NCBI GenBank assembly: GCA_030647555.1
Contig: JAUSJG010000007.1
Location: forward strand, 106,181-170,180
Direction: 5' to 3'
Length of the DNA stretch: 64,000 nucleotides
Source: a bacterium
GTDB lineage: Bacteria > Patescibacteriota > Andersenbacteria > UBA10190 > CAIZMI01
The notes below the pieces were generated by a model. It did not search any database, was not told the DNA's origin, and saw nothing but the letters and a program-made list of their open reading frames with translations. The position numbers and the translations under genes are program-made. Shown piece after piece: positions 2,628 through 51,681 of the stretch (positions are counted from its first letter, which is position 1; each line of letters opens with the position of its first letter).

Positions 2628-2638
2628 AGTGTAGGGGG

Positions 2639-2719
2639 TAGATTCCTATAATTGTCCTCTAATTTCCTTTCTATTTCGGTATTTAGATTTGTATACAGTA
2701 TTTGGTATATAGTATATGG
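2639..2719 (+). repeat. Post-stop conserved element, copy A (sense to mfd)
   Basis: TAGaTTCCTATAA...CCTCTAATTTCC...TATTTAGATTTGTATACAGTATTTGGTATATAGTATATGG. Confidence 0.7.
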
Positions 2720-2903
2720 ATTTATTGAGCACATACTATATTTTGGCATTTTTATATATATTATATTTTGTCGAGCACGAAATCATCCCCCGTCGCCCTG
2801 ATGAGCTATGGGGGATTATTGTTTTTTACGAAAAACAATAAAAAAACCGTACGACTACCTGGTCGTACGGCTACTAAAGAGCTTGAAACTGGTAACGTCG
2901 CCG

Positions 2904-3908
2904 CTACTTGATCTGGCGGATTTCGCGGGGGCTTTTGCGCACCCCTTGAAGTTGCTTGTGGCAGCGCTGTTTCAGCATCGCCACCTGCTCCGGCCCGCCG
3001 AACACTTTTGTGATTGCTCGCGCATCAAGACTCTCGAGCGCACTGATGTACTGTGTCGCGCCAGTGAAATCTTTCCATCCAACAGACTCATCGACGAGGC
3101 CTTTCAGTCTTATCGCTTCGACGATAAACAGCTCGATCAGCCGCTCGTCCAAAACGGCCAGCTCGGGATCATCCGGAATGAAAGTGTAACCATATCCGAC
3201 CGATTTCCGGACCATTTTTCTTTTGATGGGCTCAATACCCTCAAGCAGAAGTTTGGCCCCAGCAAGATCACCAGCTTCCATTCGTACCCGACACACCGCG
3301 AGAGACTCCTCTCGAAACCGTCGTGCATCCTCCTTAGCACGAACCTCGGCTTCCACGATTTCCCTCTCGACGGCTTCTTTGGCTGTTCTCTCGGCTTGAG
3401 CCTTGCTGTTAACCGCAGAAATGACCTGCACACGAAGTTCGTCATGTTTCCGTGTCAGTTCCGCGAGCCGCTCTTTCAAAGCCACAAGTTCATCATTTCG
3501 CGGCTTAACAAACGGAATGAGATACTTTTTCGTCTGAAGCAATCCTAAGCCTCGACTTGTCCAAAGCAACCTTTCTCCCGCTCGATCGAACGCATTTCGT
3601 GCGCCCGGATTGGCAATAACACTGGCATGTCCATCTTCAGCCTCGGCCAGGTATTTACCGCAATCGACGAAAATGAGATCGGCCCATTCCTTGTTCCGCT
3701 TATCAAGTTCGCGAAACAACCTGCTTCGCGCAGCCCCATATTGCCTCCTTAGGTCTTGGCTGCTCGTTTCAAGGATCGCATCCGTAAGCCAACTTGTGCA
3801 AGAGGCCAGTTCCGCTGGTTTAGAGGACTGGCTCGCCAACAATTGGGCGGCGTGACCGAGAAGCCACGTATTGTCGCGATCACGATCAATTTCAAACCCA
3901 TCATACAT
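2904..3908 (-). CDS. Hypothetical protein with long central coiled-coil/charged segment; GC-richer than surroundings
   Basis: 334-aa ORF; AGGAG Shine-Dalgarno 8 nt upstream of ATG; consensus-like promoter TTGACA-17-TACGAT on minus strand (rev-comp of ~3940-3975); no family recognised. Confidence 0.55.
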   Translation of the reverse strand: MYDGFEIDRDRDNTWLLGHAAQLLASQSSKPAELASCTSWLTDAILETSSQDLRRQYGAARSRLFRELDKRNKEWADLIFVDCGKYLAEAEDGHASVIANPGARNAFDRAGERLLWTSRGLGLLQTKKYLIPFVKPRNDELVALKERLAELTRKHDELRVQVISAVNSKAQAERTAKEAVEREIVEAEVRAKEDARRFREESLAVCRVRMEAGDLAGAKLLLEGIEPIKRKMVRKSVGYGYTFIPDDPELAVLDERLIELFIVEAIRLKGLVDESVGWKDFTGATQYISALESLDARAITKVFGGPEQVAMLKQRCHKQLQGVRKSPREIRQIK

Positions 3909-4018
3909 TGGATTTTCTCCTGTTATATTTATTCAGTTTTCCCACAGAACAACGGAAAATCGTACCCCCAAATTGGAGATTTGTCAATAGTACCGTTTGC
4001 GAGAATAATATGTAGGTA

Positions 4019-5287
4019 ATGGCAGAAATAAACACAGAAACGGAAACAACAATTCAATCGCCTGTCATTCCTACTGAAGCAGGAATCAGCAACGACCAGA
4101 AAACGGATTCCTGCTTCGGCAGGAATGACGATGTTGCCAACGAACTCTCTATCCTCCAAGCCCTCGCAGCCTTCCGACCAAATATCAACGCGTCAAAATT
4201 ACACGCCCTCATTAAATACGCTGGCAGTATTGAACAGGCTTGGGCAGTACCCGACGAAGCGTTGGAACAATACGGCTGGACTGCGGAACAACGACAATTA
4301 TTTAATGCTCACCGAAAAAATTATCAACCGGAAAAAGCACTGGAGCGCCTTTACCATTTAGGCATAGAGTTTATTCCCGACACTTCCCCTAAATTTCCAA
4401 AATCACTTCTTGATATATTCGATCCACCGCTTGGTCTTTATGTTCGCGGTAAACTTCACCAAAACAGTTTGAACATTGCTTTTGTGGGCAGTCGCAAAGC
4501 CACACCCTACGGAAAAACCGTTACAAACATGTTGGTGCGTCCGCTTGCCGCCAAAGGCGTCGTCATTATTTCCGGGTTAGCTTATGGCATCGATGCCGAA
4601 GCCCACCAGGCCACACTACAAAGCAATGGCACCACTTGGGCCGTCATGGGCAACGGTTGCGACGAAATGACTCTTTATCCACGCGCCCACCGCCAGTTAG
4701 CAAAAGACATTATTAATAATGATGGCGCGGTAATCAGTGAATATCCACCCGGCACACCGGGGCAACCCTATTTTTTCCCACAACGTAACCGCATTGTCTC
4801 CGGTCTTTCTCGCGCGATTGTTGTCGTGGAAGCAGGGCTACAAAGCGGTGCCCTAATCACCGCCCGCTTGGGCCTTGAACAAAATCGTGAAGTTTTCGCC
4901 GTTCCCGGCCCCATTACTTCGGAAATGTCCCAAGGAACCAACGAACTGATCCGCGATGGTGCGACACCTGTGAGTAGTGCCGAACAAATTATGGACGCGT
5001 TGGAACTGTTCTCTTTATTTGGCGGAATATCTCCCTCAAAAGCCGCGAGACAAATCTCCCACAAAGACATCGATGCCGTTTCAAATATTGTCGCAAGAAC
5101 CACTTCCAATCAACCGCAAAATGACCAAGAAAAAGTCTTAACTGTCCTTTCTACAAATCCGCTCGCTATTGACGAGATCGTAAAAGCCAGTACACTCCCG
5201 TCTCAAGTGGTAGGTTCTATTTTAACTCTTTTGGAAATTGAAGGTTTAGTCAAAGATATCGGCAATAAAAACTACACCAGAATTTGA
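4019..5287 (+). CDS. dprA: DNA processing protein DprA/Smf
   Basis: Rossmann-like DprA core (VVIISGLAYGIDAEAHQATL, FAVPGPI), SAM-like N-region; exact start uncertain (imperfect inverted repeat 4070-4130 lies inside the 5' end of the ORF). Confidence 0.8.
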   Translation: MAEINTETETTIQSPVIPTEAGISNDQKTDSCFGRNDDVANELSILQALAAFRPNINASKLHALIKYAGSIEQAWAVPDEALEQYGWTAEQRQLFNAHRKNYQPEKALERLYHLGIEFIPDTSPKFPKSLLDIFDPPLGLYVRGKLHQNSLNIAFVGSRKATPYGKTVTNMLVRPLAAKGVVIISGLAYGIDAEAHQATLQSNGTTWAVMGNGCDEMTLYPRAHRQLAKDIINNDGAVISEYPPGTPGQPYFFPQRNRIVSGLSRAIVVVEAGLQSGALITARLGLEQNREVFAVPGPITSEMSQGTNELIRDGATPVSSAEQIMDALELFSLFGGISPSKAARQISHKDIDAVSNIVARTTSNQPQNDQEKVLTVLSTNPLAIDEIVKASTLPSQVVGSILTLLEIEGLVKDIGNKNYTRI

Positions 5288-5322
5288 ATAATGATTGATG
5301 AATGATGATTTATGAATAATGA
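5288..5322. repeat. ATG/TCA-rich palindromic gene-boundary linker (family: GAATGATGATTTATGAATAATG / rev-comp)
   Basis: Copies at 5288-5322, 5690-5722, 10786-10812, 26182-26254, 43377-43452, 51641-51678, each abutting or overlapping a start or stop codon. Confidence 0.6.
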
Positions 5323-5701
5323 AAAAAATACCAAAATTACAGTTTTTACAGACCTTAACGCATGGAAAGAATCCCACAAACTTGTCTTGCTCACATACCA
5401 ATTAACAAAAACATTTCCTAAAGATGAAATGTATGGCTTAATTAGCCAAATGAGACGAGCGGCAATTTCGATAACATCAAATATCGCGGAAGGATTTGGC
5501 AGGCAAACTTATCCTGAAAAAATCCAATTTTACTCGATTGCCAAAGGTTCATTATCGGAATTGCAAAATCAACTAATAGCTTCCAGGGACACAAATTTGT
5601 TAAATGAAGATTCTTTTCAGAACGCGTTTAAACAAAGCATTACCGCCCATAAACTCATCACGGGATTAATAAGAAGGTCGCGCGAAATTCATCAATCATA
5701 A
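5312..5701 (+). CDS. Four-helix-bundle protein (23S rRNA intervening-sequence protein family)
   Basis: Signature ITSNIAEGFGRQ...FYSIAKGSLSELQNQL typical of TIGR02436-type proteins; bounded on both sides by ATGATGATTTATGAAT-type palindromic linkers. Confidence 0.8.
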   Translation: MNNEKNTKITVFTDLNAWKESHKLVLLTYQLTKTFPKDEMYGLISQMRRAAISITSNIAEGFGRQTYPEKIQFYSIAKGSLSELQNQLIASRDTNLLNEDSFQNAFKQSITAHKLITGLIRRSREIHQS

Positions 5702-5725
5702 ATCATCATTCATAATTCACGTATC

Positions 5726-7957
5726 ATGAAACTAGTTATCGTCGAGTCCCCCGCTAAAGCAAAAACGATCGCCAAATACCTTGGTAAGGGTTATGTGGTA
5801 AAAGCATCCTTTGGTCATGTGCGTGATTTGCCAAAAAGTAAAATCGGCGTGGACGTGGAAAATAATTTTGAGCCGGTTTATGTAGTACCGCCAAAAGCCA
5901 AAAAAACCGTCGCCGAACTGACACAAAGCGTTGCCAAAGCCGAGAAAGTCTACTTCGCCACTGATGAAGACCGCGAAGGAGAAGCCATTGCCTGGCATTT
6001 GGCAAAGATATTAAAGGTAAATGAAAAAACGGCGGAACGCATTACGTTCGACGAAATTACCAAGTCGGCCATTCAGCACGCCATTGAAAATCCGCGCAAA
6101 CTCAATTTACAACTGGTAGACGCCCAACAAGCGCGCCGTATTTTAGACCGTTTAGTCGGTTATGAATTATCACCGCTTCTTTGGAATAAAATTCGACGCG
6201 GGCTTTCGGCTGGGCGCGTGCAATCGGTGGCGGTGCGCTTAATTGTCGAACGCGAACGGGAAATTGAAGCATTCAAGGCTGATGAATTTTGGTCGGTGGA
6301 AGCAAACCTAAAAGCAAAAAATGGCGAATTTTTGGCAAAACTGCGCGCGGTTGATGAGCAAGTGCTGGACAAACTAGCGATTAAATCCGGCGCGGAAGCG
6401 GAACAAATTAAGAAAACCCTGGAAGGCGCCGTTTGGTTGATAGACAACATTGAAGAAAAACAAGTCAATCGCAGTCCCCTTCCTCCTTTTACCACCAGCA
6501 CACTGCAACAAGCCGCGTCCAACCGTCTTGGTTTTTCCACCAAAAAAACAATGATGCTCGCCCAACGTCTTTACGAAGGTATTGAACTAGGCGAAGAAGG
6601 TGCCACCGGTTTAATCACCTATATGCGTACCGACTCCTTAAATTTAGCGAATGAAGCATTAACCAAAATTCGTGAACTAATTCAAAAAGATTTTGGCACG
6701 GATTATTTACCGGCCGAACCGCGCTTCTACAAAAATAAATCGCGCGGTGCCCAAGAAGCCCACGAAGCCATTCGTCCCACCGATGTTAATTTGAAACCGG
6801 AATTTGTCGCGCAACACGTGGAACGCGACATGGCGCGCCTTTATGAATTAATTTGGCGCCGAACAGTCGCCTGCCAGACCGCCAATGCCAAATTTAAAGC
6901 CATGACCGTCGACATCAAAGCAAGCAAATATTATTTTCGCGCCACCGGTTCATCGGTTGCTTTCGCGGGTTTTCTGCAAATTTGGGGGATCGATAAAACC
7001 AAAGAAGTAATTCTTCCTTCGCTCGCAAAAAATGAGACGTTGGAATTATTAGTACTGAATACTTTACAACATTTTACCCAACCGCCCGCTAGGTATTCGG
7101 AAGCCAGTCTGGTTAAAGCATTGGAAGAAGCCGGTATTGGTCGTCCTTCCACATATGCGCCAACCATCGACACGGTTCAAAAACGCGGTTACGTGGAAAA
7201 AAGTTTAGAAGACAAAAGGTTCCGTCCAACGGATATTGGAAAAGTAGTAAACGATGTTTTAGTAGAACATTTCCCCGAAATCGTTGATATTCAGTTTACG
7301 GCCCGCATGGAAGAAGACCTCGACCAAATCGCGGATGGCAAAAAAGAGATGGTGCCGATCTTAAAAGCTTTCTACACTCCTTTCAAGAAAAACCTCAAAG
7401 AAAAAGCCAAAACGCTCAATAAAGACGACATCACCACCGAAAAAACCGATCTAAAGTGCCCCGATTGCGGAAAACCGGTAATCTTACGGCTTGGGCGCAA
7501 TGGTAAATTTTACGGTTGCTCCGGTTACCCCGATTGCAAATATACCGCGCCAAGCAGTGAACAAGAAAAATCAGAGATGGAAACGGCGCCGACTGGAAAA
7601 ATCTGCCCCGATTGTAACAAGGATTTAGTGCTCAAACGCGGACGCTTTGGCGCGTTCTTGGGTTGCGCCGGTTATCCTGAATGCAAACACACCGAACGGA
7701 TCGAAAAGAAAGTCGGCGGAATTTGTCCGAAGTGCAACGTCGGGGAAATTGTGGAACGAAAATCCAAACGCGGAAAATATTTCTATGGTTGCAATAAATA
7801 TCCGGAATGCGATTTTGTTTTGTGGAGCAAACCAACCGGTGAAAAATGCCCGACCTGCCAAAGTCTCCTCATCTTCGGAAAAAACAATACCGCGGTTTGT
7901 TCCGGTAAAGAGTGCGGTTTTTCCAAGGATTACGAAGCGAAGAGCGAAGAGGAATAA
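5726..7957 (+). CDS. topA: DNA topoisomerase I with four C-terminal C4 zinc-ribbon repeats
   Basis: TOPRIM N-terminus (KLVIVESPAKAKTI), active-site region GLITYMRTDS, repeated CPxCG...C zinc ribbons at C-terminus. Confidence 0.92.
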   Translation: MKLVIVESPAKAKTIAKYLGKGYVVKASFGHVRDLPKSKIGVDVENNFEPVYVVPPKAKKTVAELTQSVAKAEKVYFATDEDREGEAIAWHLAKILKVNEKTAERITFDEITKSAIQHAIENPRKLNLQLVDAQQARRILDRLVGYELSPLLWNKIRRGLSAGRVQSVAVRLIVEREREIEAFKADEFWSVEANLKAKNGEFLAKLRAVDEQVLDKLAIKSGAEAEQIKKTLEGAVWLIDNIEEKQVNRSPLPPFTTSTLQQAASNRLGFSTKKTMMLAQRLYEGIELGEEGATGLITYMRTDSLNLANEALTKIRELIQKDFGTDYLPAEPRFYKNKSRGAQEAHEAIRPTDVNLKPEFVAQHVERDMARLYELIWRRTVACQTANAKFKAMTVDIKASKYYFRATGSSVAFAGFLQIWGIDKTKEVILPSLAKNETLELLVLNTLQHFTQPPARYSEASLVKALEEAGIGRPSTYAPTIDTVQKRGYVEKSLEDKRFRPTDIGKVVNDVLVEHFPEIVDIQFTARMEEDLDQIADGKKEMVPILKAFYTPFKKNLKEKAKTLNKDDITTEKTDLKCPDCGKPVILRLGRNGKFYGCSGYPDCKYTAPSSEQEKSEMETAPTGKICPDCNKDLVLKRGRFGAFLGCAGYPECKHTERIEKKVGGICPKCNVGEIVERKSKRGKYFYGCNKYPECDFVLWSKPTGEKCPTCQSLLIFGKNNTAVCSGKECGFSKDYEAKSEEE

Positions 7958-10711: not shown

Positions 10712-11072
10712 GTGATGCTCTCATTGTATATCTACGAGAAAGAATAGGAAACATGCGGTTATTTTTCATTCAATGAACCCAGATTTTGAATGATGAATGA
10801 TGATTTATGAATACTGAACCGCGATATCGTAGGGGCGGACGTCCCCGTCCGCCCGCGTCAACAATATCCAGTTTCTAGTTTCCAAATTTGTACCGGAGGA
10901 GGGAGTCCTTTTTCACCCAAAATTTCCGCTCGCTTTGCTCGAAGGAAATTTTCGGCGAAAAAGCCGGGGTTACATAAACAACTAAAGCAGTTTAGTTGTT
11001 TATGTAACCCTTCGACTCCCACACAAGTTGATTATATATAAAAGTCCCCAAATGGGGACTTTTATATATAAG

Positions 11073-11155
11073 TACCGGAGGAGGGAGTCGAACCCACATG
11101 ACCGTAAGGTCACACGATTTTGAGTCGTGCGCGTAAACCATTCCGCCACTCCGGC
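11073..11155 (-). tRNA. tRNA-Leu (anticodon CAA), type II with long variable arm
   Basis: Rev-comp folds as acceptor GCCGGAG/CTCCGGT + discriminator A, D-arm with GG, anticodon stem CACGA/TCGTG with loop CTCAAAA, variable arm GACC-TTAC-GGTC, T-loop TTCGACT; CCA not encoded. Confidence 0.75.
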
Positions 11156-11236
11156 CCTTGAAATAGGTTAGCTTATATCACTATTAATTTCAACGCTGTA
11201 GGGGCAATTCACGAATTGCCCTCGCGTTGCGTTGCT

Positions 11237-12550: not shown

Positions 12551-12697
12551 ATGCCCAGTAATACAACTTCCAATTACTGGATTAATTCCTAACTCTTGAA
12601 TGAATAAATATGCACAAATTGAACTTCTTAACCTTATCTTCCGCCAGTTTTGAACGAACCGCGTTCGTTCAAATTGGAAGTTGATATACTGGGTATG
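12551..12697 (+). promoter_or_regulatory. Conserved leader element copy 1 (upstream of ugd)
   Basis: Distal GCCCAGTAATACAACTTCCAATT, internal hairpin TTGAACGAA-CCGCG-TTCGTTCAA, proximal AATTGGAAGTTGATATACTGGGT-ATG. Confidence 0.6.
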
Positions 12698-14047
12698 CCT
12701 AAAAATTCTACAAAACGCGTCGCAAAAGAACCTAAGACAAAGAAAAAGCGCATCTCCATCATCGGGACGGGTTATGTTGGATTAGTGTCCGGTGCTTGTT
12801 TGGCCGAAATCGGCCATCACGTTATTTGCGTTGACCGGCACGAGGATAAAGTGGCAAAACTTAAAAAAGGAATCAGTCCGATTTTTGAACCGGGAATTGA
12901 AGAATTAATCGCCAAAAATATCAAAGCGAAACGTTTGGAATTTACAACCGATTTGCAGAGCGCGATAAAAAACACCGACGTAATTTTCATTGCCGTTAAT
13001 ACCCCGCCACGACCGGACGGAAAAGCGGACTTGTCTTTCGTTGCATATGCCGCACGCCAAATTGCCGAAGTTTCCACAGAGTACAAAGTTGTTGTCGACA
13101 AAAGCACCGTGCCCGTCCAAACCGGCGAAAAAGTTTTAGAAACGCTTCGTTCCTACAACCCGCACGGCATTGAATTCGATGTGGTAAGTAACCCGGAGTT
13201 CTTACGTGAAGGGACGGCCATTTATGATTTCTTAAACCCGGATCGTATCGTTATCGGTACCGAGAATGAACGCGCGGAAAAAATTATGCGTGAAATTTAT
13301 GCGCCAATCAAAGCGCCGTTTATCGCCACCGATATTAATTCAGCGGAATTAATTAAACATGCGTCGAACTCTTTCTTGGCCACAAAAATTTCTTTTGCCA
13401 ACGCTTTGGCCGCCATTTGCGAATTAACTAATGCCAATGTCGAAGAAGTCACTTACGGAATGGGTTTGGATAAACGCATTGGGCCCGCCTTCTTAAAGGC
13501 CGGCGTCGGTTATGGTGGCAGTTGTTTTCCCAAGGACGTTTCTGCGTTTGTGAAAATTGCCGAAGAAATCAACTATGATTTTGGCATTCTCAAGGCTGTT
13601 GAAAAAATAAACGAAGAAGCCAAACAGAGCTTTATCAAAAAAATCGAATCCGCGCTTTGGATTGTTAAAGGAAAGACAATCGCTATTTGGGGTCTCTCCT
13701 TCAAACCCAACACCGACGATATGCGTAGCGCGCCGGCTGTAACTGTCATTAATCACTTGCGTAGTGAAGGTGCAATTATCAAAGCTTATGATCCACAAGC
13801 AATGGAAAAAGCACATAATGTGCTCGGTGACGAAAACATCACGTATGTAAAATCCGCGATGGACGCAACAATCAACGCCGACGCGCTTGTCATTATTACC
13901 GATTGGGACGAGTTCAAAAAAGCCGATTTGGAAAAAGTTCGTGCTTCCCTGCACCAGCCATTAATCATCGATGGTCGCAACATGTTCGATCCGAAAGTAA
14001 TGGAAGAAAAAGGCTTCTTGTATCATTCGGTCGGACGAGGTAAATAA
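12695..14047 (+). CDS. ugd: UDP-glucose 6-dehydrogenase
   Basis: N-terminal NAD fold ISIIGTGYVGLVSGACLA, catalytic GGSCFPKD; start placed at ATG that terminates the conserved leader element (…GATATACTGGGTATG). Confidence 0.88.
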   Translation: MPKNSTKRVAKEPKTKKKRISIIGTGYVGLVSGACLAEIGHHVICVDRHEDKVAKLKKGISPIFEPGIEELIAKNIKAKRLEFTTDLQSAIKNTDVIFIAVNTPPRPDGKADLSFVAYAARQIAEVSTEYKVVVDKSTVPVQTGEKVLETLRSYNPHGIEFDVVSNPEFLREGTAIYDFLNPDRIVIGTENERAEKIMREIYAPIKAPFIATDINSAELIKHASNSFLATKISFANALAAICELTNANVEEVTYGMGLDKRIGPAFLKAGVGYGGSCFPKDVSAFVKIAEEINYDFGILKAVEKINEEAKQSFIKKIESALWIVKGKTIAIWGLSFKPNTDDMRSAPAVTVINHLRSEGAIIKAYDPQAMEKAHNVLGDENITYVKSAMDATINADALVIITDWDEFKKADLEKVRASLHQPLIIDGRNMFDPKVMEEKGFLYHSVGRGK

Positions 14048-14063
14048 TTACTAACCAGCTTAC

Positions 14064-14829
14064 CACCTACGAGGTGGAGCAACCTTGCTCCACCTCGTAG
14101 GTGGTGCAAGGCAATAAATTTATTCCAAACAAAGAGCCTTAATTTGTGCAAGCTCTTTTTGATAATTCGCTTGATCATTTGTAAATTTTTCGTATTGTTT
14201 TCCCGAAAACGGCATCAGCCCTGAATAATCGCAAACTGGAAATTTCACACTATCGCTTTTTACATACTCTAAAAATGAAGAATATGGCCAATCGGATGCT
14301 TTCTTGACTAATCCCGCGCTAACCGGATTCAAGTGGATATAGCGCGTTAAATGCAAAAAATGATTATCGTTGCTTACATTAACACTCTGAAAACGCCCTA
14401 CCCAAAGAGGCCCCTTTCGTTCAATTTTTGTATTAAAGTAACGAGCATAAGCATTAGAAACATCAGACAGATATTTTTCAATCCCGTGCTCTTTCAATTG
14501 TTTTACGACAAGATGAAAATGTGTCGGCATTAAGCCATAACAAATGACTTGAATGGATTTATCCTTATCCGCTAACACTCGGCTTATTTCTTCTTCAATA
14601 TTTTCTTTGTGAATTTTTACATCACGTAAAAATTGAGAGTATTTCTGTCGAACACCGGCATATGTGTAATACCTGATTAAATTTTTCATATGAAAAAAAT
14701 CGCCCTCCTTTTGAAATATTCTAAACCCCGCTATGCTTTTATTCATCACATGATAAATTTCACCATTTGCTAAAATATCTTTTCGCATAAAGTTATTATA
14801 ATCCCAAAATCATCTTTGCTCCACCTACG
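14064..14829. mobile_element. REPtron-like unit: RAYT gene bracketed by REP-like palindromes sharing the core GGAGCAA-NN-TTGCTCC
   Basis: Left 40-nt palindrome CACCTACGAGGTGGAGCAACCTTGCTCCACCTCGTAGGTG (14064-14103), right hairpin TTGCTCCACCTACGAGGTGGAGCA (14806-14829). Confidence 0.6.
14120..14788 (-). CDS. IS200/RAYT-type Y1 (HUH) transposase, COG1943-like
   Basis: HUH motif PTHFHLVV and C-terminal catalytic tyrosine context RYIHLNPVSAGLV...DWPYSSF typical of REP-associated tyrosine transposases; flanked by palindromes at 14064-14103 and 14806-14829. Confidence 0.75.
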   Translation of the reverse strand: MRKDILANGEIYHVMNKSIAGFRIFQKEGDFFHMKNLIRYYTYAGVRQKYSQFLRDVKIHKENIEEEISRVLADKDKSIQVICYGLMPTHFHLVVKQLKEHGIEKYLSDVSNAYARYFNTKIERKGPLWVGRFQSVNVSNDNHFLHLTRYIHLNPVSAGLVKKASDWPYSSFLEYVKSDSVKFPVCDYSGLMPFSGKQYEKFTNDQANYQKELAQIKALCLE

Positions 14830-14949
14830 AGGTGGAGCAGGTTGACAAAACCACCCCAAAACGCAACACTGCCCTGTTGCGTCAATGTTGACGTGACGGC
14901 TGTGCGCATACCACAGTCATGCACATTTCTACTTCAGGGAGACATCGCC

Positions 14950-15414
14950 ATGTCTACGTCCGCGCAAACCGGAAAAAAGCCTAACAATCTCACTATCCAG
15001 TGGTGGATAGCAACGCTCGCCGACTTCTTCTCGCAAGCAGTCGACTTCATCAAAAAGGGATCACGATCCCAAGAGATGATTAATGCTTTGCTTAAAGCAT
15101 TTCGACTCTTCAAAGAAGACAAACTCCAGTGTGTCCTAAGCAAGGATGAATGTTCGACCGACATTGATTTCTATTTGAAGGTTTTGCGTCCAGGAACTAT
15201 TTTCCAGCTGGAAAAAGCAGGAAATGAAATTCGAATTTGCGACGCAAACTATAAAACAATCTACTGGCCTGGTCACCGCGCATGGATATCGATTCCGAAC
15301 ATCGACAGCATGGATCGCCTCTGGGACCTCATCTTCGGAATAAATCAAATGACTGGTTCAGGTTTAAAACTGGCTGAACACCAGGGCAATGAAATTCAAT
15401 TACTGAAACGTTAG
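14950..15414 (+). CDS. Hypothetical protein
   Basis: ORF with GGGAGA SD 8 nt upstream of ATG at 14950; followed by strong rho-independent terminator. Confidence 0.5.
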   Translation: MSTSAQTGKKPNNLTIQWWIATLADFFSQAVDFIKKGSRSQEMINALLKAFRLFKEDKLQCVLSKDECSTDIDFYLKVLRPGTIFQLEKAGNEIRICDANYKTIYWPGHRAWISIPNIDSMDRLWDLIFGINQMTGSGLKLAEHQGNEIQLLKR

Positions 15415-15424
15415 CCCCCCCCCT

Positions 15425-15452
15425 CACCACCGCACCACGGTGGTTTTTTTAT
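15425..15452 (+). terminator. Rho-independent terminator
   Basis: CACCACCG-CACCA-CGGTGGT hairpin followed by TTTTTTT. Confidence 0.75.
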
Positions 15453-15463
15453 TCGTTTACGCT

Positions 15464-15580
15464 GTAGGGGCAATTCCAGCCGTCGCTACCCACTTCGCTC
15501 ACCCTCCGCATAAAGCTACGGAGTGACGCAGTAAAGCTTCGAGGGTTAAGAAAGCTATGGCCGGCAGGCATGAATTGCCC
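15464..15580. repeat. GTAGGGGCAATTC-bounded inverted-repeat element (long variant with internal insertion)
   Basis: GTAGGGGCAATTCCAGCCGTCGCT...AAAGCTATGGCCGGCAGGCATGAATTGCCC; short variants at 32368-32423, 11198-11223, 22535-22560, core only at 19381-19410. Confidence 0.65.
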
Positions 15581-15636
15581 ACATTTATTTTTTACACAAA
15601 TATATAAATCGAAAATATTCAACAAAAAAACAATGG

Positions 15637-15726
15637 TCAATAATTCCATATACTATATACCAAATACCATATACAAATCTAAATATAAGAATAGTTAGTA
15701 ATTTAGAGGAGTATTATAGGAAACTA
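15637..15726 (-). repeat. Post-stop conserved element, copy B (sense to nucleotidyltransferase gene; stop codon embedded)
   Basis: Same ~90-nt consensus, >85% identity to copy A/C. Confidence 0.7.
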
Positions 15727-22417: not shown

Positions 22418-22622
22418 CCAAGTGTCAAACAACAGCCCCGCCCCGACCAACCGGTCCCGGCGGTATTTTTTTGATTTTTTCGCAAAAAAATCAATCCCCC
22501 ATAGCTTTAGCGACGGGGGATACTTCTCATCCACGTAGGGGCGATTCATGAATTGCCCCAGATTGTTACCGAAACACCCAATAAATCTGATTGATTATCT
22601 CAAACAAACATACCCAATAAAT

Positions 22623-22655
22623 CCATATACTATATACCAAATACAATATACAGAT
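22623..22655 (+). repeat. Partial copy (5' 33 nt) of the post-stop element
   Basis: CCATATACTATATACCAAATACAATATACAGAT. Confidence 0.6.
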
Positions 22656-22744
22656 TACGCGGGAGATTGCCCGCCCCTTCAGGGGCGAGGTTCGCCCAGA
22701 TGGGCGACTTCGACACTGAAGTGCCTCGCAAAGACTCATGTATA

Positions 22745-24106
22745 CTATCTCTTCTTCATCACTCTCCGCGCACTATCCACCCGTTTCTTTACTTCCCGCT
22801 CAAAACCCTGCTCCGTTGGTTCGTAATAAATATGATCTTTAATTCGATCCGGTAAATATTGCTGTTCCACGACGTGCCCCTCTCCGCCGTGCGGATCTTT
22901 ATAGCCGACACTGGCGCCTTGTTTAGTCATGTCCGGTACGGGTGCATTTTTAAGGTGGTTCGGCACACGTAATTGCCCATAATGTTCCAAGTCACCTCTA
23001 ACCCCACGCATCGCTTTTTTCACCGCGTCGCTTTTTGGCGATGCCGATAAATAAATACAAGCTTGCGAAAGCGCGTATGATGCCTCCGGTAAACCAACCC
23101 ACTCCAGTGCGTGCCCCGCCGAAACCGCCACCATTAAGGCGTGAGGATCAGCGTTTCCAATATCTTCTGACGCAAAAATAATCATCCGACGCGCGATAAA
23201 TTCCGGATCTTCACCGGCCGATAACATTTTGTGCAACCAAAAAAGTGCAGCGTCCGGTTCACTTCCCCGCATACTTTTAATAAAGGCGGAAATTGTATCG
23301 AAATGCTCATCGCCTTTTGCGTCATATTTAAACGCCCGTGTTTGGATGGCATCTTCAATTTCTTTTAGCTGAATAATTGCGCCAACTTTTTTTGTAATTG
23401 CAGAAAGCTCTAAAGCATTGAGCGCCATCCGTGCGTCACCGCCGGCCATTTGCGCCAAATGTTCCAATGCCTTCGGTTGAATTTTTAGTTTCTGTTTTCC
23501 CAAACCCCGTTCCACATCCTGCAACGCGCTTTCGATAATCTGTTTAATATTTTCATCGGCCAGTGGCGCCAACTGATAAACCTGCGACCGCGACACCAAG
23601 GCCTTAATCACTTCAAAATACGGATTTTCCGTTGTCACCCCAACCAAAGTAATCGTTCCGTCTTCAACATGTGGCAGAAGAATATCCTGTTGCGCTTTAT
23701 TGAAACGATGAATTTCATCAACAACAACAACTGTTCTTTTACCCTGCATCTTGCGTCGCTCGCGCGCCGCCTCGATTACTTTGCGCAAGTCGGCACTGCC
23801 GGCCGTGACCGCGCTAACCGGTTCAAAATAGGCCTCCATTTTGCTGGCAATAATTTCGGCAATCGTCGTTTTGCCCGAGCCCGGCGGGCCATACAAAATA
23901 AGCGAACCGACCTTACCCGATTCAACCGCTTTTCGAAGCAACGCATTCTTACCCAAAATAACTTCTTGCCCCACAAAATCCTCCATTTTCTTTGGCCGCA
24001 TCCGTGCCGCCAAAGGCGCCTCGCTTTGAAGGGCTTTTTTGAGCTGATTATCGAATAAATCTTGATTTTGAGCATCGGTTGACATGTGGAATGTATTGTA
24101 ATACAA
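22745..24106 (-). CDS. rarA: Replication-associated recombination protein A (RarA/MgsA AAA+ ATPase)
   Basis: Walker [14 protein letters not shown], Walker [11 protein letters not shown], MgsA C-terminal helical domain. Confidence 0.9.
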
Positions 24107-25417: not shown

Positions 25418-26179
25418 TTATTCAATTCCAAACAATTTTCGGGTATTTGCCTCCGTGACTTGAGCAACCTCTTCCACCGATATCCCCTTAATCTCCGCGA
25501 TTTTCTTGGCAATTTCCACGACGTACGCCGGTTCGTTGCGTTGACCACGTACAACCTGTGGCGCCAAAAATGGCGCGTCGGTTTCGATCAATAAACGCTC
25601 AAGCGGCAAATCCTTTACGACAGCGCGTATTTCATCGGCTTTTGGAAATGTCACCATTCCGGCGATGCCTAAATAATACCCTTGATCCAAATAAAATTTT
25701 GCCTCTCCAGGCGTGCCTGTAAAACTATGAATGACCGCATTGAGTTTAAAATTATTTTCACGAATTATTTGTTGAAACTCTTTATGCACGTAACGGACGT
25801 GAAAAATTATCGGCTTATTGTGCGCAACAGCCAAAGTAATAAAACGTAACATCGCTGGGATTTGTTCTTCAAGTGACGGCAGGCGTTCGTTTTTTTCCAA
25901 ACCAATTTCGCCAACTGCTACAACCTTGGGATGCTTCAATAATTCCGCAAAACGCAACCAAAACGCTTCCGTAATATTTTTTATTCCCTCCGGATGTACG
26001 CCAATCGACGCATAAACATTTTCGAATTGTTCGGCGATTTTTACCGGCTTTTCAAAACCAAAACAATCGGCACCGGGGTTAATAATTGTGTTTACGCCCG
26101 CTTGTTTCGCACGACCAATAACCTCCGACCGATCGGCATTAAACTGTTCAACGTCTAAATGACAATGAGAGTCAATCAT
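25418..26179 (-). CDS. tatD: TatD-family metal-dependent DNase/hydrolase
   Basis: MIDSHCHLD start and conserved His/Glu/Asp pattern. Confidence 0.88.
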   Translation of the reverse strand: MIDSHCHLDVEQFNADRSEVIGRAKQAGVNTIINPGADCFGFEKPVKIAEQFENVYASIGVHPEGIKNITEAFWLRFAELLKHPKVVAVGEIGLEKNERLPSLEEQIPAMLRFITLAVAHNKPIIFHVRYVHKEFQQIIRENNFKLNAVIHSFTGTPGEAKFYLDQGYYLGIAGMVTFPKADEIRAVVKDLPLERLLIETDAPFLAPQVVRGQRNEPAYVVEIAKKIAEIKGISVEEVAQVTEANTRKLFGIE

Positions 26180-26254
26180 CGCTTGAATAATGATTTACGA
26201 TTTATGATTAAAGAATACGTCGCCGAATTTCGTCGATTCATAAATCATCAATCG

Positions 26255-27685
26255 TCATTCATTCTTCGGAAACAATACCGGCGGGTTTGTGATTTTTCCG
26301 TCACTGTCTATAGAGTCCGAAATTGTCTTCGCTGTTTTTGGCATTACCTCTTTTATCGCCCTCGCAATTAAATCAATTGCGTTTAATACCTGTTGGATTG
26401 TTTGAGCACGTTGTACTTCATCCGCATTTTTCCACGGTGCTTTTGCATCAAGATACACATTCGCCTTACGCGCCCAATTCAAAATACGCTCAAAGATTTT
26501 TTCTAATGATTCATCATTATACATATCTTTTATATCTTGCGCGTCATAAATCTCGCTTGTTTCACTGTCAACGTGTTTGACACTAAATTTTTCCGCCAAA
26601 TTAAAAGTTCTTCTTACAAGATTACCAAGCACATTAGCCAGTTCATTATATTTTTCGTCAAACCGATCAACAGCAATGTCGCCTGAATTTCCAAACGGAA
26701 GCGCTGTAATAATTAAGTAGCGCGCAACGTCTGAACCGTATTTATCAACAATATCAATCGGGTCGATAACATTTCCCAAGCTCTTACTCATCTTTTGACC
26801 ATTGATTGTAAAAAATCCGTGAATGGAAAGCGATTTGGGTAATTCTAACCCCAGCGCCAATAAAATCGCTGGCCAATAAACGGCATGAAATTTTAGAATC
26901 TCTTGCGCCATTACCTGTACATCCGCCGGCCAGAATTTTTTCAGTTGCTCATCATTTTCCGAACCATAGCCCAAGGCGGTAACATAATTTAACAACGCAT
27001 CCAGCCAGACATAAGCCACTTGAGTGGAATCAAACGGAAGTTCAATTCCCCACTTGAGGCGTTCTTTTGATCTGGAGATAGAGAAATCTTCCAGTCCTTG
27101 CTGAAATAGCCCCAAAACTTCATTTTTCCGCTCTGTGGGTAAAATTAATATCCGATCGGCCTCAATCGCACTCTTAATTTCCGGCAAAAATTTAGCGAGG
27201 TTGAAGAACCAATTTTTTTCTTCCACTACCACCGGTTTCTTTTGGTGTAGCGGTTCCAAACCGTTCTCGTCCAAATCTTTTTCGGTTACAAAGGCTTCAC
27301 ACCCAGTGCAATAAAGACCTGTATAGGTTTTTTCGTAAATAACGCCTGTTTCTTTGAGTTTGTTTAACGCGTAAATAACGCCTTGTTCATGCCGCTTGTC
27401 AGTAGTACGAATAAAATCTGAATAACCAATATCAAGTTTTTGCCAACAATCTTTAAAGCTCTGGGCAATTTCATCAACAAATTGTTGAGGTTCTTTTCCA
27501 GCAACAGTAGCAGTGTCGGCCACTTTCGCGCCATGTTCATCGGTACCGGTGAGAAAAAAAATATCCTCGCCGCGCCCTTTATGCAAACGCGCCAAAACAT
27601 CCGCCGCAATGGTCGTATAAGCATGACCAATGTGAGGCTTGCCATTGGCGTAGTAGATGGGCGTAGTTATTGAATAGCGATCCAT
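26255..27685 (-). CDS. metG: Methionyl-tRNA synthetase (short form)
   Basis: HIGH region PHIGHAYTT, KMSKS (QKMSKSLGN), CxxC zinc knuckle CTGC. Confidence 0.92.
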   Translation of the reverse strand: MDRYSITTPIYYANGKPHIGHAYTTIAADVLARLHKGRGEDIFFLTGTDEHGAKVADTATVAGKEPQQFVDEIAQSFKDCWQKLDIGYSDFIRTTDKRHEQGVIYALNKLKETGVIYEKTYTGLYCTGCEAFVTEKDLDENGLEPLHQKKPVVVEEKNWFFNLAKFLPEIKSAIEADRILILPTERKNEVLGLFQQGLEDFSISRSKERLKWGIELPFDSTQVAYVWLDALLNYVTALGYGSENDEQLKKFWPADVQVMAQEILKFHAVYWPAILLALGLELPKSLSIHGFFTINGQKMSKSLGNVIDPIDIVDKYGSDVARYLIITALPFGNSGDIAVDRFDEKYNELANVLGNLVRRTFNLAEKFSVKHVDSETSEIYDAQDIKDMYNDESLEKIFERILNWARKANVYLDAKAPWKNADEVQRAQTIQQVLNAIDLIARAIKEVMPKTAKTISDSIDSDGKITNPPVLFPKNE

Positions 27686-27894
27686 GAGAGGAGTGTAGGG
27701 ATAATTTAATGTTTAGACAAGAAAGAAATCCATTAAATCCCAAACCCCAATGACCAATGTCCAACAAAATCCCAATTTTCAAAATACCAAAAACGTTTTG
27801 GCCATTTGAGATTTAGAATATTGTTGGGATTTGGGGTTTGGTCATTGGGATTTAAAAACATGAGTATTTCTAAATATTCAAGTATAATTTCCCC

Positions 27895-28314: not shown

Positions 28315-28357
28315 TAAATTGAATCAAGGTCGAATTATACGAGAAAACTACTATTAT

Positions 28358-28453
28358 CCATATACAATATACCAAATACTATATACAAATCTAAATAATG
28401 AAACAGAAAGGAATTTAGAGGTTGTTATAGGAAACTACTCCCTGCCCCCCCTA
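28358..28453 (-). repeat. Post-stop conserved element, copy C (sense to AI-2E transporter gene; stop codon embedded)
   Basis: Same consensus. Confidence 0.7.
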
Positions 28454-32156: not shown

Positions 32157-32297
32157 CCCAGTATATCAACTTTCAATTTGAACGAATTCGATTCGTTCAA
32201 AAATTACTCTTATCAAAGCTAAATTTTTTTCATTTTTCATGATGTTTATCGGCATAAAAGTGAGATCTAAAAATTGAAAGTTGTATTACTGGGCATG
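32154..32297 (-). promoter_or_regulatory. Conserved leader element copy 2 (upstream of glyQS)
   Basis: Same architecture; hairpin TTGAACGAATCGAATTCGTTCAA; C-G to T-A compensatory change between distal/proximal arms. Confidence 0.6.
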
Positions 32298-32367
32298 TAA
32301 CGTATAGTATGGATTTTTCTCTCTTTGGTCAAAGCGGAGTATTCAACATGTTTCACCAAAACAATTT

Positions 32368-32423
32368 GGGGCAATTCCAGCCGTCGCTAAAGCTATGGCC
32401 GGCAGGCATGAATTGCCCCTACA
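32368..32423. repeat. GTAGGGGCAATTC-bounded element, short variant
   Basis: GGGGCAATTCCAGCCGTCGCTAAAGCTATGGCCGGCAGGCATGAATTGCCCCTAC. Confidence 0.65.
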
Positions 32424-42829: not shown

Positions 42830-43449
42830 GTATGCGAAAAAGAGCGAGCAAGAACAATAAGGTGGGACTGGATGTGGTCTCATTTGGAGTGAAACCATAC
42901 TGGAGCAGACTTGTTTCCCTGCGGAAGATGGGCTGTCTACTCTGTAACACTTGCGGGCTACTTTCAAACCCGAAAGCACATCCGGCGTTCTTGCCCGCTC
43001 TCGAAATATGCTAAAAGAACTACGCTCAACCATTGTAAACCCTGCTTTTGCAATGTCAAACAAACAAGAAAACACCCATGAGCGATGTCATGGGTGGGTA
43101 TAAGGTGCGGGCGCGGAGAGAAGAACTAGCAACTGGAGAAAGAGAAATGGTACACAGCTTTGTGTCCGACCGACCAGAATGACATCAAGCTGTCTGGCGT
43201 GCCAACACTGAGCGAACTCTGCATAGCTGGCAAACCCACACTGAAACTTCCAATCGACGCAAACCCAGTGTTGGCACCCATTTCTTGTCCCACTGTGGAC
43301 AACCCCTCCGCGACCCGCATACTTGCCAAAGAACCTATTTACAAAATACTCCCACCACAATGATTGTCAAGCGAACGAATATGATTAATGATTTACGAAT
43401 GATGATTTATGAAAAACGATTCGGTTTAAGACTCATAAATCCTAAATCA

Positions 43450-49064: not shown

Positions 49065-50771
49065 TTACATTACCTGAATTTTTTCTACGCCGAGCAAATC
49101 CAACACGTTTCCAAGAGTCTGTCGCGCCGCCAAGATCAAAAGAATCAACGTAATTTGTTCATTGCGATTTTCATTATTCAAAACATGCACCGTGTCATAA
49201 AAATAATGAATGGATTTGGCCAACTCAATTGCATAATGTGGCAACCGATGCACTTCCCAGGAAGTCGCCACATCATCCACTATTTCCGGGAAACGATATA
49301 CCTGACGCATTAATTCATGTTCGGCCACCTGCCGAAGCGGCACGATATCACGCACCGGTGGTGGGATAACACCGTCCAAAACATTAGTTTCCTTTGCCTT
49401 GCGAATAATCGAAGCCAGTCGCACATACGCGTATTGCACATAATAAACCGGATTACGATCAGTTTGCTCCTTGGCCAAATCGACATCAAAATCCATATGC
49501 GAAGACAGAGAATTCATACACAAGATAAACCGCGCCGCGGAAAGACCCGCCTCTTCCACCATTTTATCAAGCGGAATTGCCGTACCCGCCCGCTTCGACA
49601 TTTTCTTTCTTTCCCCACCTTCAATCACGGCCACCATCTGCGTCAAAATAATTTGGATCTTTTCCACATCGCCACCGACTGCCTTCACGCCACCCAACAA
49701 TCTTTTTACGTCGCCGTGGTGATCCGCGCCCCAAAAATTAACGATTTTTGAAAAACCGCGACCCAACTTATCCAAATGATAAGCAATGTCCGGCGCAAAA
49801 TACGTCGTGTGGCCATCACCTTTCACCAATACACGATCTTTATCATCACCAAATTCCGTTGCCTTAAACCAAACAGCATCGTCTTTTTCATAACTCAATC
49901 CAGCTTTTTTCAGCTTTTCCAACACATCCGCCACTTCGCCTTTTTCATGCAACGTTCTTTCTGAAAACCAAACATCAAAATGCACTTTGCATTTTTCTTC
50001 AATCATCTTTCTGATTTCTTCAATGACCGTATCCACCGATTTTCGCGCCAGTGAATTAATAAATGCCTCATCAGCTAAATCTTTTTCCGAAAATTCGTGC
50101 GCAACATCTTCAACATAAAGCTCCTCCACTTTCTGCGCGATTATTTTCACATCGTCACCTTGGTACATGTTTTCCGGATATTCCACATCAATTCCCCTTC
50201 GGCGCAAAATAGATCGTAAAATAGATTCACCAAAAATTCTTACCTGGTTACCGACGTCATTAATGTAGTATTCGCGGGTTACCGCCCAACCGGATTTCTC
50301 CAAAACGCGTCCTAATGAGTCGGCCCAAAAAAGCGCGCGACCATTTCCAAAGGTTGGCATACCGGTCGGATTAGCAGAAACGAATTCCAGATTAATTGTT
50401 TGACCTGATCCCTGATTGTTGCTACCAAAACGATCACCTTCCTCTGTAACGTCATCAAGTTTTTTTGTGAGCCACTGCGGATTAAGAAAAAAATTAATGA
50501 ATCCCGGTTCAATAATCTCGGTTTTTATAAAAAACTCACTTGGTTCTATATTTTTCACAATTATTGTCGCAACCTCCATTGGATTCTTACCACTCTTCTT
50601 TCCAATCGCCAATGCAATAGGTGTTGCATAATCACCCAAAATTGCTTGATTAGCCGGCGGATACTGCACAATAATTTTCCCTAATTCAATGTTCGGCAAT
50701 TCGCCAGCAGCGACTGCCTTTTCAATGGCGACCCTCAAGATTGATTGGAGTTCGTTTCGGAGATTTTGCAT
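49065..50771 (-). CDS. argS: Arginyl-tRNA synthetase
   Basis: Arg-tRNA-synthetase N-domain, HIGH-variant region, DALR-type anticodon-binding C-terminus; start ATG terminates conserved leader element. Confidence 0.88.
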   Translation of the reverse strand: MQNLRNELQSILRVAIEKAVAAGELPNIELGKIIVQYPPANQAILGDYATPIALAIGKKSGKNPMEVATIIVKNIEPSEFFIKTEIIEPGFINFFLNPQWLTKKLDDVTEEGDRFGSNNQGSGQTINLEFVSANPTGMPTFGNGRALFWADSLGRVLEKSGWAVTREYYINDVGNQVRIFGESILRSILRRRGIDVEYPENMYQGDDVKIIAQKVEELYVEDVAHEFSEKDLADEAFINSLARKSVDTVIEEIRKMIEEKCKVHFDVWFSERTLHEKGEVADVLEKLKKAGLSYEKDDAVWFKATEFGDDKDRVLVKGDGHTTYFAPDIAYHLDKLGRGFSKIVNFWGADHHGDVKRLLGGVKAVGGDVEKIQIILTQMVAVIEGGERKKMSKRAGTAIPLDKMVEEAGLSAARFILCMNSLSSHMDFDVDLAKEQTDRNPVYYVQYAYVRLASIIRKAKETNVLDGVIPPPVRDIVPLRQVAEHELMRQVYRFPEIVDDVATSWEVHRLPHYAIELAKSIHYFYDTVHVLNNENRNEQITLILLILAARQTLGNVLDLLGVEKIQVM

Positions 50772-50916
50772 ACCCAGTATATCAACTTCCAATTTGAGCG
50801 ATTTCGAATCGCTCAAAAGAAGAACCGGTTAATGTTAAAACATTCCTCGGGCCCATACACAAAACCAATAGTTCTCGCTGAAATTTGAAATTGGAAGTTG
50901 TATTACTACTGGGCAT
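50769..50916 (-). promoter_or_regulatory. Conserved leader element copy 3 (upstream of argS)
   Basis: Hairpin TTGAGCGATTCGAAATCGCTCAA (covarying), proximal arm ends in start ATG. Confidence 0.6.
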
Positions 50917-51591: not shown

Positions 51592-51681
51592 CAAATACAT
51601 CCAACCCACCGACCCTGTCAAAGAGCCGGTTTTTATTACCTTTCCAAAATCATCAATCATCATTCATAATTCATTACAGTT

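Follow-up and report, generated by a model that had tools for sequence, protein, structure and literature searches.

A lineage-restricted modular repeat at gene 3' ends in an uncultured bacterium, with a plausible RNA-level hairpin

Interspersed repeats of the REP/BIME type are well known in Proteobacteria, and mRNAs of E. coli are stabilised by REP stem-loops in their 3' UTRs. To our knowledge, such repeats have hardly been described in the very small genomes of the candidate phyla radiation. BIMEs are defined as REPs combined with non-palindromic linker motifs (PMC8266576); typically, a linker sets apart two inversely oriented REPs, and the unit often recurs in tandem. According to previous studies, REPs are mostly located between convergent or unidirectional ORFs, GTAG-REPs frequently provide, through their termini, the TAG stop codon of flanking ORFs, and the G-T pairs in REP stems argue for a role at the RNA level (PMC3733652, Di Nocera et al. 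2013). Moreover, IS608 and RAYT select the sites that they cleave through DNA-DNA pairing with a tetranucleotide that serves as guide, for instance GTAG (PMC8266576).

The 64-kb window, i.e., the whole stretch of DNA that was analysed, carries an element which we describe as working like a BIME-type mosaic repeat and do not assign to any named family. This modular repeat is restricted to one lineage; it was secondarily added to the 3' ends of genes, and its left junction falls at the stop codon. We consider it somewhat more probable than an even bet that the element is a modular repeat of the REP/BIME class, interspersed and specific to this lineage, which is carried in 3' UTRs and bears a hairpin acting at the RNA level. 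The repeat family is new and its architecture is a new variant, while its kind, bacterial interspersed intergenic repeats, is already familiar.

A 31-nt core (TATTTAGATTTGTATAYRGTATTTGGTATAT) has exact matches in the window at 2680-2710 on the forward strand (copy c1) and at 15655-15685 (c2) and 28367-28397 (c3) on the reverse strand, and a 22-nt 3' core has a fourth match at 22623-22644 on the reverse strand (c4). The three full copies and one partial copy listed in the initial annotation were thus all recovered where it had placed them, and dinucleotide-preserving shuffles gave no core match. A profile built from the full copies returned these with nhmmer E-values of 1e-31 to 1e-34 and found nothing beyond them in the window. 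The identity of more than 85% given earlier for the full copies is too high: their pairwise identity is 72-81% over ~97 nt, and a 3' module of 46 nt, termed H, alone reaches ~95-100%. As well, the stretch 22623-22655, previously taken as a partial copy, is in fact part of a complete module H joined to a different 5' repeat. Together with relatives, four full copies (c1, c2, c3, and L008) and three H-only copies (c4, L010, and L024) were gathered; since these seven are all that were gathered, the orientation and target statistics given below are thin.

Each full copy consists of a G-rich leader ending in (G/A)TAG, a module A, and a module H. Module A, which starts right after the (G/A)TAG, is ~40 nt long, G-poor and pyrimidine-rich, and reads TTTCCTATAA-N3-4-CCTCTAAATTCCTTTCTnTTTC. 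Module H (TTTAGATTT-GTATAyn-GTATTTG-GTATATw-GTATATG-GATTTATTG) is almost invariant and contains four contiguous GTATAnn heptads. It also occurs without module A, fused to other repeats. The partner of H in c4 is a G+C-rich repeat (GAGTCTTTGCGAGGC...GGCAATCTC, 'REP-3'), and a related species carries this REP-3+H composite at the matching locus (L024, L025, and L036), while the H of L010 is preceded by yet another G+C hairpin. The composite in L024 lies upstream of a divergent gene and has no stop codon in front of it. In c2, c4, and L010, H is followed by an A+T-rich spacer of ~60 nt and then by a GTAG-tagged REP (GTAGGGGCAATTC...) on the opposite strand; the block of H, spacer, and REP-1 in c2 is common to L010 (75% identity over 137 nt). 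This arrangement is absent in c1, c3, and L008, and no tandem repetition was seen in any copy.

Copy c1 follows the mfd gene on the forward strand, where the G-rich leader AGTGTAGGGGGTAG (2628-2641), containing GTAG, lies between the native mfd stop codon (2625-2627) and module A (ATTCCTATAAT..CCTCTAATTTCCTTTCT.., 2642-2681), which is again G-poor and pyrimidine-rich. The native stop precedes the GTAG of the element by 11 nt, and leader and stop together form three GTAGnnn heptads. Module H of c1, four GTATAnn heptads plus ATTTATTG, occupies 2682-2727. On the reverse strand, module A of c2 (15684-15726) begins directly after the native TAG (15724-15726) of a sugar-phosphate nucleotidyltransferase gene and is followed by module H at 15638-15683; a GTAG-tagged REP-1 complex (15445-15576, reverse strand), whose GTAG is read from the opposite strand (15464-15467), lies ~60 nt 3' of it. 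Copy c3, also on the reverse strand, comes after the native stop (28451-28453) of an AI-2E transporter gene and comprises the G-rich leader GGGGGGCAGGGAGTAG (28435-28450), module A (28396-28434), and module H (28350-28395); here, the stop precedes the GTAG by 13 nt. In both c1 and c3, the native stop is separated from the conserved part by 14-16 nt of G-rich sequence that ends in GTAG. In c4 (reverse strand), REP-3 (22661-22744) replaces module A, follows the RarA stop codon (22745-22747), and leads into module H at 22615-22660, which is the positional counterpart of the composite in L024.

In this architecture the element resembles the BIMEs of Enterobacteria, which are likewise modular mosaics of recurring motifs (here A+H, REP-3+H, and H plus spacer plus REP-1), are extragenic, sit at gene 3' ends between convergent genes and co-oriented with the upstream gene, and occur in host genomes that also encode a RAYT. 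Unlike BIMEs, the element has an A+T-rich heptad array as its core rather than a G+C-rich palindrome, its full copies need not contain two inverted REPs, its left end joins the stop codon with an exactness that has not been described for BIMEs, and its host belongs to a CPR-like lineage.

The genes flanking the copies are housekeeping genes, including mfd, the sugar-phosphate nucleotidyltransferase gene, the AI-2E transporter gene, and rarA, whose product is 68% identical to RarA of a Parcubacteria MAG. Judging by the names of homologues, the organism is probably a member of Parcubacteria (CPR). All four copies in the window are located between convergent genes, and the full copies are in sense orientation and start at, or at most ~32 nt from, the native stop codon. 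The initial annotation had noted this orientation, and all three full copies of the window indeed lie directly behind genes ending in TAG. It had further proposed that two of the copies supply the TAG stop themselves, which applies to c2 only (15724-15726), whereas c1 and c3 have native stops further 5'. The abutting gene ends in TAG in five of six cases, compared with 14 of the 49 genes of the window (binomial p ~0.01). GC skew is negative along the entire window, while c1 points in one orientation and c2-c4 in the other; because the skew stays constant while the copies point both ways, copy orientation follows the neighbouring gene and not the replication strand, and a replication-strand bias was rejected. 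The convergent ORFs downstream of the copies were also considered as a common cargo family, which was rejected on account of their lack of mutual similarity.

A graded series of orthologues of the flanking genes was assembled from public assemblies, in which the element sites are empty in relatives of 82-94% protein identity. At the nucleotidyltransferase site, L022 (94% amino acid identity) has a 62-nt spacer containing a canonical bidirectional terminator only, and the element is likewise missing from L023 (87%), L019 (85%), and L015 (81%). At the AI-2E site, the spacer measures 0 nt in L031 and 90 nt, with a terminator hairpin, in L035; L024 has an extra gene there and L038 has no element. 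Homology at both sites ends exactly after the native stop TAG. The compared sites differ in other gap content too, so that none of them forms a clean pair of filled and empty site. Among the three functions initially suggested for the element, a non-autonomous mobile element with 3'-end preference is the best supported, given the empty sites, the divergence right after the native TAG, the five of six TAG-ending upstream genes, the restriction to one lineage, and the assembly breaks described below, although neither a defined right end nor a target-site duplication was found. Gene content around each copy was also seen to differ from that of relatives (2628-4018, 14048-15723, and 22418-22744). 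For instance, a 334-aa coiled-coil ORF separates mfd from dprA, two genes that are direct neighbours in L015 and L019; an ORF and a RAYT gene lie between the nucleotidyltransferase and UDP-glucose dehydrogenase genes; and a 484-aa gene that follows rarA in L024 and L038 has been lost in the window.

Outside the window, copies were found only in relatives, namely L008 and L010 (both bin-405, CAIZMI01), L024, L025, and L036. A scan of a genome collection with one genome per species gave 13 loci, two of which are true and belong to one MAG (bin-405, CAIZMI01); the other 11 were rejected as unrelated chance tandem repeats of GTATATG. Two scans of metagenomes and one of viral sequences gave no match to the element, plasmids and phages gave none either, and no copy was present in 20-kb samples of more distant relatives or in a further 5.5 kb past the left edge of the window (L030). 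A search of 240 kb of related loci with a covariance model of H gave no copies beyond the known ones and a weak heptad array in L008. The Logan contig L014 starts inside module H of c4 and ends inside that of c2, L036 ends in H, and the P0202 contigs end at or before H; short-read contigs break in H, in keeping with a dispersed repeat. As a practical effect, the element breaks short-read assemblies of this lineage.

As sense RNA, H of all seven copies is predicted to fold into a G.U-rich hairpin of 15-20 bp with a UUUGG loop (-5.4 to -19.3 kcal/mol). Five of the seven have z-scores of -3.2 or below, with 0-2 of 200 shuffles folding as well; the values are -10.2 kcal/mol and z -3.2 for c1, -10.3 and -3.4 for c3, and -13.3 and -4.0 for c4. 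Folding is poor in L024 and in c2, whose hairpin is weaker than those of all other copies (-5.4 kcal/mol, z -0.7). By contrast, the antisense RNA reaches only 0 to -4.2 kcal/mol, as does single-stranded DNA of either strand, most copies of which fold no better than shuffles. This asymmetry arises because about one third of the H pairs are G.U. The proposed helix has 92% of its cells paired across the seven copies, while registers shifted from it reach 64% at most. The covariance analysis proposed in the initial annotation brought out two compensatory pairs, i.e., an A-U in c3 that is U-A in c4, L008, L010, and L024 (with a mismatch in two copies) and a basal U-A that becomes C-G in L008, and the other variable positions keep their pair through C/U opposite G. 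However, covariation showed no significant excess over column shuffles in these seven copies, which vary little, and the hairpin is for this reason plausible rather than proven.

Folding of the element as a whole was no better than that of shuffles in three of four copies. A weaker 5' hairpin was predicted to pair AGGG.GTAG with CTAT..CCUCU, and the CCUCU that had been described as anti-SD-like would serve as one of its arms. In the favoured reading, the element would be transcribed as part of the 3' UTR of its host gene, where H would form a long hairpin, rich in G.U pairs and confined to the sense RNA, that might act as a barrier to 3' exonucleases, as a processing site, or as an aid to termination. 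Such a role, which accords with the 3'-UTR element among the initial suggestions, is suggested by the near-invariance of H while module A decays, by the sense-only folding, and by the restriction of variable positions to sites that tolerate pairing; conversely, an RNA-level role at 3' ends would explain why H has stayed near-invariant beside a decaying module A.

The heptads themselves allow a different view of H, namely as a DNA-level site whose contiguous 7-bp units are bound cooperatively by a small DNA-binding protein, the repeat marking chromosomal sites and the RNA hairpin being incidental. Arrays of heptads are bound cooperatively in this way by the ribbon-helix-helix omega protein. The four heptads of H (five in c4) are strictly contiguous and vary only at heptad positions 6 and 7, a related pair of inverted GTATGTT heptad arrays is present in L008, and H is kept whatever module neighbours it and, in L024, whatever its position relative to a stop codon. 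A DNA site would, however, not need the common orientation that all full copies have with respect to their upstream genes. A candidate binding protein was not found, the positions that vary coincide exactly with those at which pairing in the RNA hairpin is kept or tolerated, and the strong folding asymmetry between sense and antisense would have to be a coincidence, which makes a protein-binding site a quite unlikely account of H. The heptad arrays of L008 (5485-5600) are located ~30 nt apart between two same-strand genes and score a weak 22.9 bits against the H covariance model; they suggest that the lineage may harbour a wider class of GTAT-heptad elements.

Module H is probably not the terminator itself, because a conventional hairpin plus T-run is present 60-100 nt downstream in c1 and c4. 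These small structures belong to another repeat family, and the one behind c1 (CCCCCGTCGC..GCTATGGGGG ATTATTGTTTTTT, 2787-2829, forward strand, ~60 nt 3' of H) is likely the real terminator of the mfd transcript. Like intrinsic terminators and the stem-loops that stabilise mRNAs from the 3' UTR, the element has a hairpin of the sense strand with a U-rich stretch behind it in the 3' UTR, and it occupies the place where relatives (L022 and L035) have ordinary terminator hairpins. Unlike them, its stem consists of A-U and G.U pairs with 0-2 G-C pairs, and a terminator scan found nothing inside any of the four copies, so that an intrinsic terminator was rejected. The earlier remark that an obvious hairpin-plus-U terminator is lacking thus holds for a G+C-rich terminator stem, while the predicted 15-20 bp G.U-rich stem of the sense RNA had been overlooked.

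The presence of a hairpin and a U-rich tail behind a single-stranded C/U-rich stretch also bears on the small RNA gene that the initial annotation had entertained. Such a self-contained cassette would be transcribed from the TATAAT in module A and would use H as a terminator-like 3' hairpin and CCUCU/CCUUUCU as an anti-Shine-Dalgarno seed; alternatively, H would be an outward-facing promoter. The TATAAT is found in module A of c1 and c2, without a properly spaced -35 box, and is lost in c3 and L008. A sigma-70 scan, for -35 and -10 hexamers spaced by 16-18 bp, was passed within H by c3 alone (TTTAGA-18-TATATT with TG), with no hit in c1 and c4 and hits elsewhere in c2, and an independent sRNA or sigma-70 promoter was rejected on these grounds. 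Moreover, every copy is directed at a convergent gene's 3' end, nothing is conserved 3' of H, where ORFs from an ATG inside H span 5-41 or more codons and are unconserved, and the element has no Rfam match. A scan of the window against Rfam 15 gave a tRNA as the only match. In a permissive scan at c1, the best match overlapping the element was the trpB motif (2704-2825, 19 bits against a gathering threshold of 59), and the top score (21 bits against 44) lay outside the element at 2831-2900. A small RNA gene therefore finds no consistent promoter, no conserved downstream transcript, and no known family, and we regard the cassette as highly improbable.

The genome also encodes a possible means of spread. 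A RAYT-like HUH/Y1 transposase gene (14120-14788, reverse strand) matches NCBIfam REP_Tyr_transpos (E = 2.5e-17) and Pfam Y1_Tnp, and its best PDB match is E. coli TnpA-REP (4er8, E = 1.6e-8). The protein keeps the HUH motif (HFH) and the catalytic tyrosine motif (RYIHLNPV), and inverted G+C palindromes (CCACCTACGAGGTGGAGCAA...) lie on either side of the gene, at 14053-14108 and 14816-14844, which makes the locus a REPtron. The RAYT is a candidate enzyme for the spread of repeats in this genome. The REPtron locus (14053-14844) is kept in the relative L023 and absent in the closer relative L022.

The element could have spread through this REP/RAYT single-strand DNA machinery or, alternatively, through recombination among mosaic repeats, and we infer either route only weakly. 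GTAG/TAG would then be the junction, and positions immediately after TAG stop codons would accordingly be the neutral places to land; it is this GTAG junction that makes the RAYT/REP machinery the obvious candidate. Against the RAYT route, H forms no hairpin as single-stranded DNA, and the repeats that flank the RAYT gene belong to a different family from the element.

The same considerations apply to the more specific proposal that the element derives from a single-strand element of the IS200/IS605 type, or from one mobilised by a RAYT, and is similar to a PATE or REPIN whose module A (CTAT..CCTCT) pairs with the target AGGGnGTAG, and possibly with a purine-rich gene end, before landing 3' of GTAG. 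The junctions of c2 and c3 lie exactly after (G/A)TAG, and the first predicted hairpin, pairing AGGG.GTAG with CTAT..CCTCT, has a 5' half that is native coding sequence in c2. In line with PATEs and REPINs, which derive from IS200/IS605 and are mobilised by HUH Y1 enzymes, the element has no terminal inverted repeats and no target-site duplication, shows asymmetric structured ends, appears to be inserted 3' of a short specific sequence, and contains internal sequence that can pair with the flank; guide-tetranucleotide pairing is known for both IS608 and RAYT (PMC8266576), and a RAYT gene is at hand. Different from these elements, its left and right hairpins are unrelated in sequence, although the ends are usually similar in such elements, H is essentially unfolded as single-stranded DNA, unlike the substrates of RAYT and IS200 transposases, and a full-length parent was not seen. 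An orientation that is inconsistent with the replication strand in the window would also be unexpected for strictly lagging-strand transposition of single-stranded DNA, and the copies are too few for a target consensus. A single-strand element of this type is, accordingly to this balance, unlikely. The DNA hairpin expected for a Y1 transposase was rejected as such, since H does not fold as DNA. A MITE was also rejected, because the aligned ends show no end-to-end inverted similarity beyond A+T-rich chance and no flank is duplicated at c1-c3; no terminal inverted repeats, target-site duplication, or defined right end were found in the element.

Some further evidence on target choice comes from the gene ends. 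The 9-mer GAAGAAGAG occurs four times on both strands of the 64 kb (2612, 22757 on the reverse strand, 28471 on the reverse strand, and 56245), and three of the four occurrences fall into the final 25 nt of the genes that precede c1, c4, and c3. There it is native coding sequence and is also present in orthologues without the element. According to duplex prediction, the pyrimidine-rich tail of module A can pair with purine-rich gene ends, and by duplex energy the mfd end ranks 1st, the nucleotidyltransferase end 4th, and the rarA end 8th among the 49 gene ends of the window, while the AI-2E end falls outside the top 10. Both the enrichment of GAAGAAGAG at the target gene ends and the ranks of mfd and nucleotidyltransferase would suit the RAYT-mobilised element discussed above, and the AI-2E rank would not. 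The association of the 9-mer and the pairing ranks with element-bearing gene ends is suggestive but not conclusive. A bolder version, which we regard as very doubtful, is a mobile cassette targeting stop codons, in which module A (CTAT..CCUCU..CCUUUCU) would pair with a purine-rich CDS end plus TAG (GAAGAAGAG-N4-12-TAG, AGGGnGTAG) and would so equip selected genes of a reduced CPR genome with a finished 3'-UTR hairpin, in a guide-type mode of targeting. That the left junction arose at GAAGAAGAG through microhomology or ectopic recombination was rejected, for the native coding sequence runs past the 9-mer to its own stop, and so was the idea that module A is the end of the local gene copied in inverted form, for the A modules are more alike than they are to the reverse complement of their own flanks.

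Under the favoured reading, an RNA-level repeat of the REP/BIME class, we do not assign the element to a named family, because what defines a REP, a MITE, an intrinsic terminator, an Rfam family, or a sigma-70 sRNA gene was not found in the element. Like REPs, it has multiple extragenic copies between convergent ORFs (four in the 64-kb window, and others in relatives). A REP is a palindrome of 20-50 nt, usually G+C-rich, that is stable as a hairpin in single-stranded DNA, whereas H has almost no stability as such and module A is not palindromic. The REP carries a conserved tetranucleotide, mostly GTAG, at the foot of this palindrome; the element has GTAG/ATAG at the left end of all four full copies, but ~45 nt away from the H stem, the 5' flank of which is TATTTAGA. 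A cognate RAYT is flanked by the same repeats, whereas the RAYT of the window has other palindromes. With the GTAG-tagged REP superfamily in particular, the element shares the GTAG/ATAG tag at one end, which can provide the TAG of the flanking ORF (c2), the location between convergent ORFs, and G.T/G.U stem pairs implying a function of the transcribed strand; it differs in the distance of the tag from the hairpin and in the near absence of hairpin stability as single-stranded DNA.

The window is rich in repeats, six or more families being present besides the element. The genome has several families of GTAG-tagged REPs, and one of these (GTAGGGGCAATTC...GAATTGCCC, with the conserved inner loop CGTCGCTAAAGCTATGG) is present at 11198, 15464, 22535, and 32365-32422, and GTAG-REP flanking stems covary (CCCCC/GGGGG versus CCGGCC/GGCCGG) at 2787, 8030, 19377, 22495, 32376, and 46503. 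An A+T-rich family (TGAATGATGAATGATGATTTATGAAT) is located in very short spacers at gene starts or stops (5280-5322, 5688-5719, 10775-10817, 26179-26267, 43377-43455, and 51642-51676), and two inverted copies of it bracket a 129-aa ORF (5312-5701; Pfam 23S_rRNA_IVP, Avd-like). We also identified a motif of ~46 nt (TTTTGAACGAAnnnnnTTCGTTCAAATTGRAAGTTGWTATACTGGG), a palindrome followed by an A+T-rich stretch, directly 5' of three genes (12648-12698, 32157-32202, and 50768-50818), which may serve them as a common operator or leader. An inverted repeat of low complexity (AAACCCCAATGACCAAA..CCCAACAAAA..) lies at 27733-27855 and recurs in the genome (L030, at 6640-6720 and at the 3' end); one Logan contig ends in it. 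Finally, a 40-nt inverted repeat (11011-11092) overlaps the 3' part of the only tRNA gene of the window (11073-11155, reverse strand) and may be the remnant of an integration site.

The window thus unites several repeat families, a RAYT gene, and an unusual A+T-rich heptad element. If the placement behind TAG and the gene ends carrying GAAGAAGAG hold genome-wide, the element would represent a new case of sequence-guided target choice. If H is an RNA-level module of gene 3' ends, a streamlined genome can swap its ordinary terminator regions for a portable cassette.
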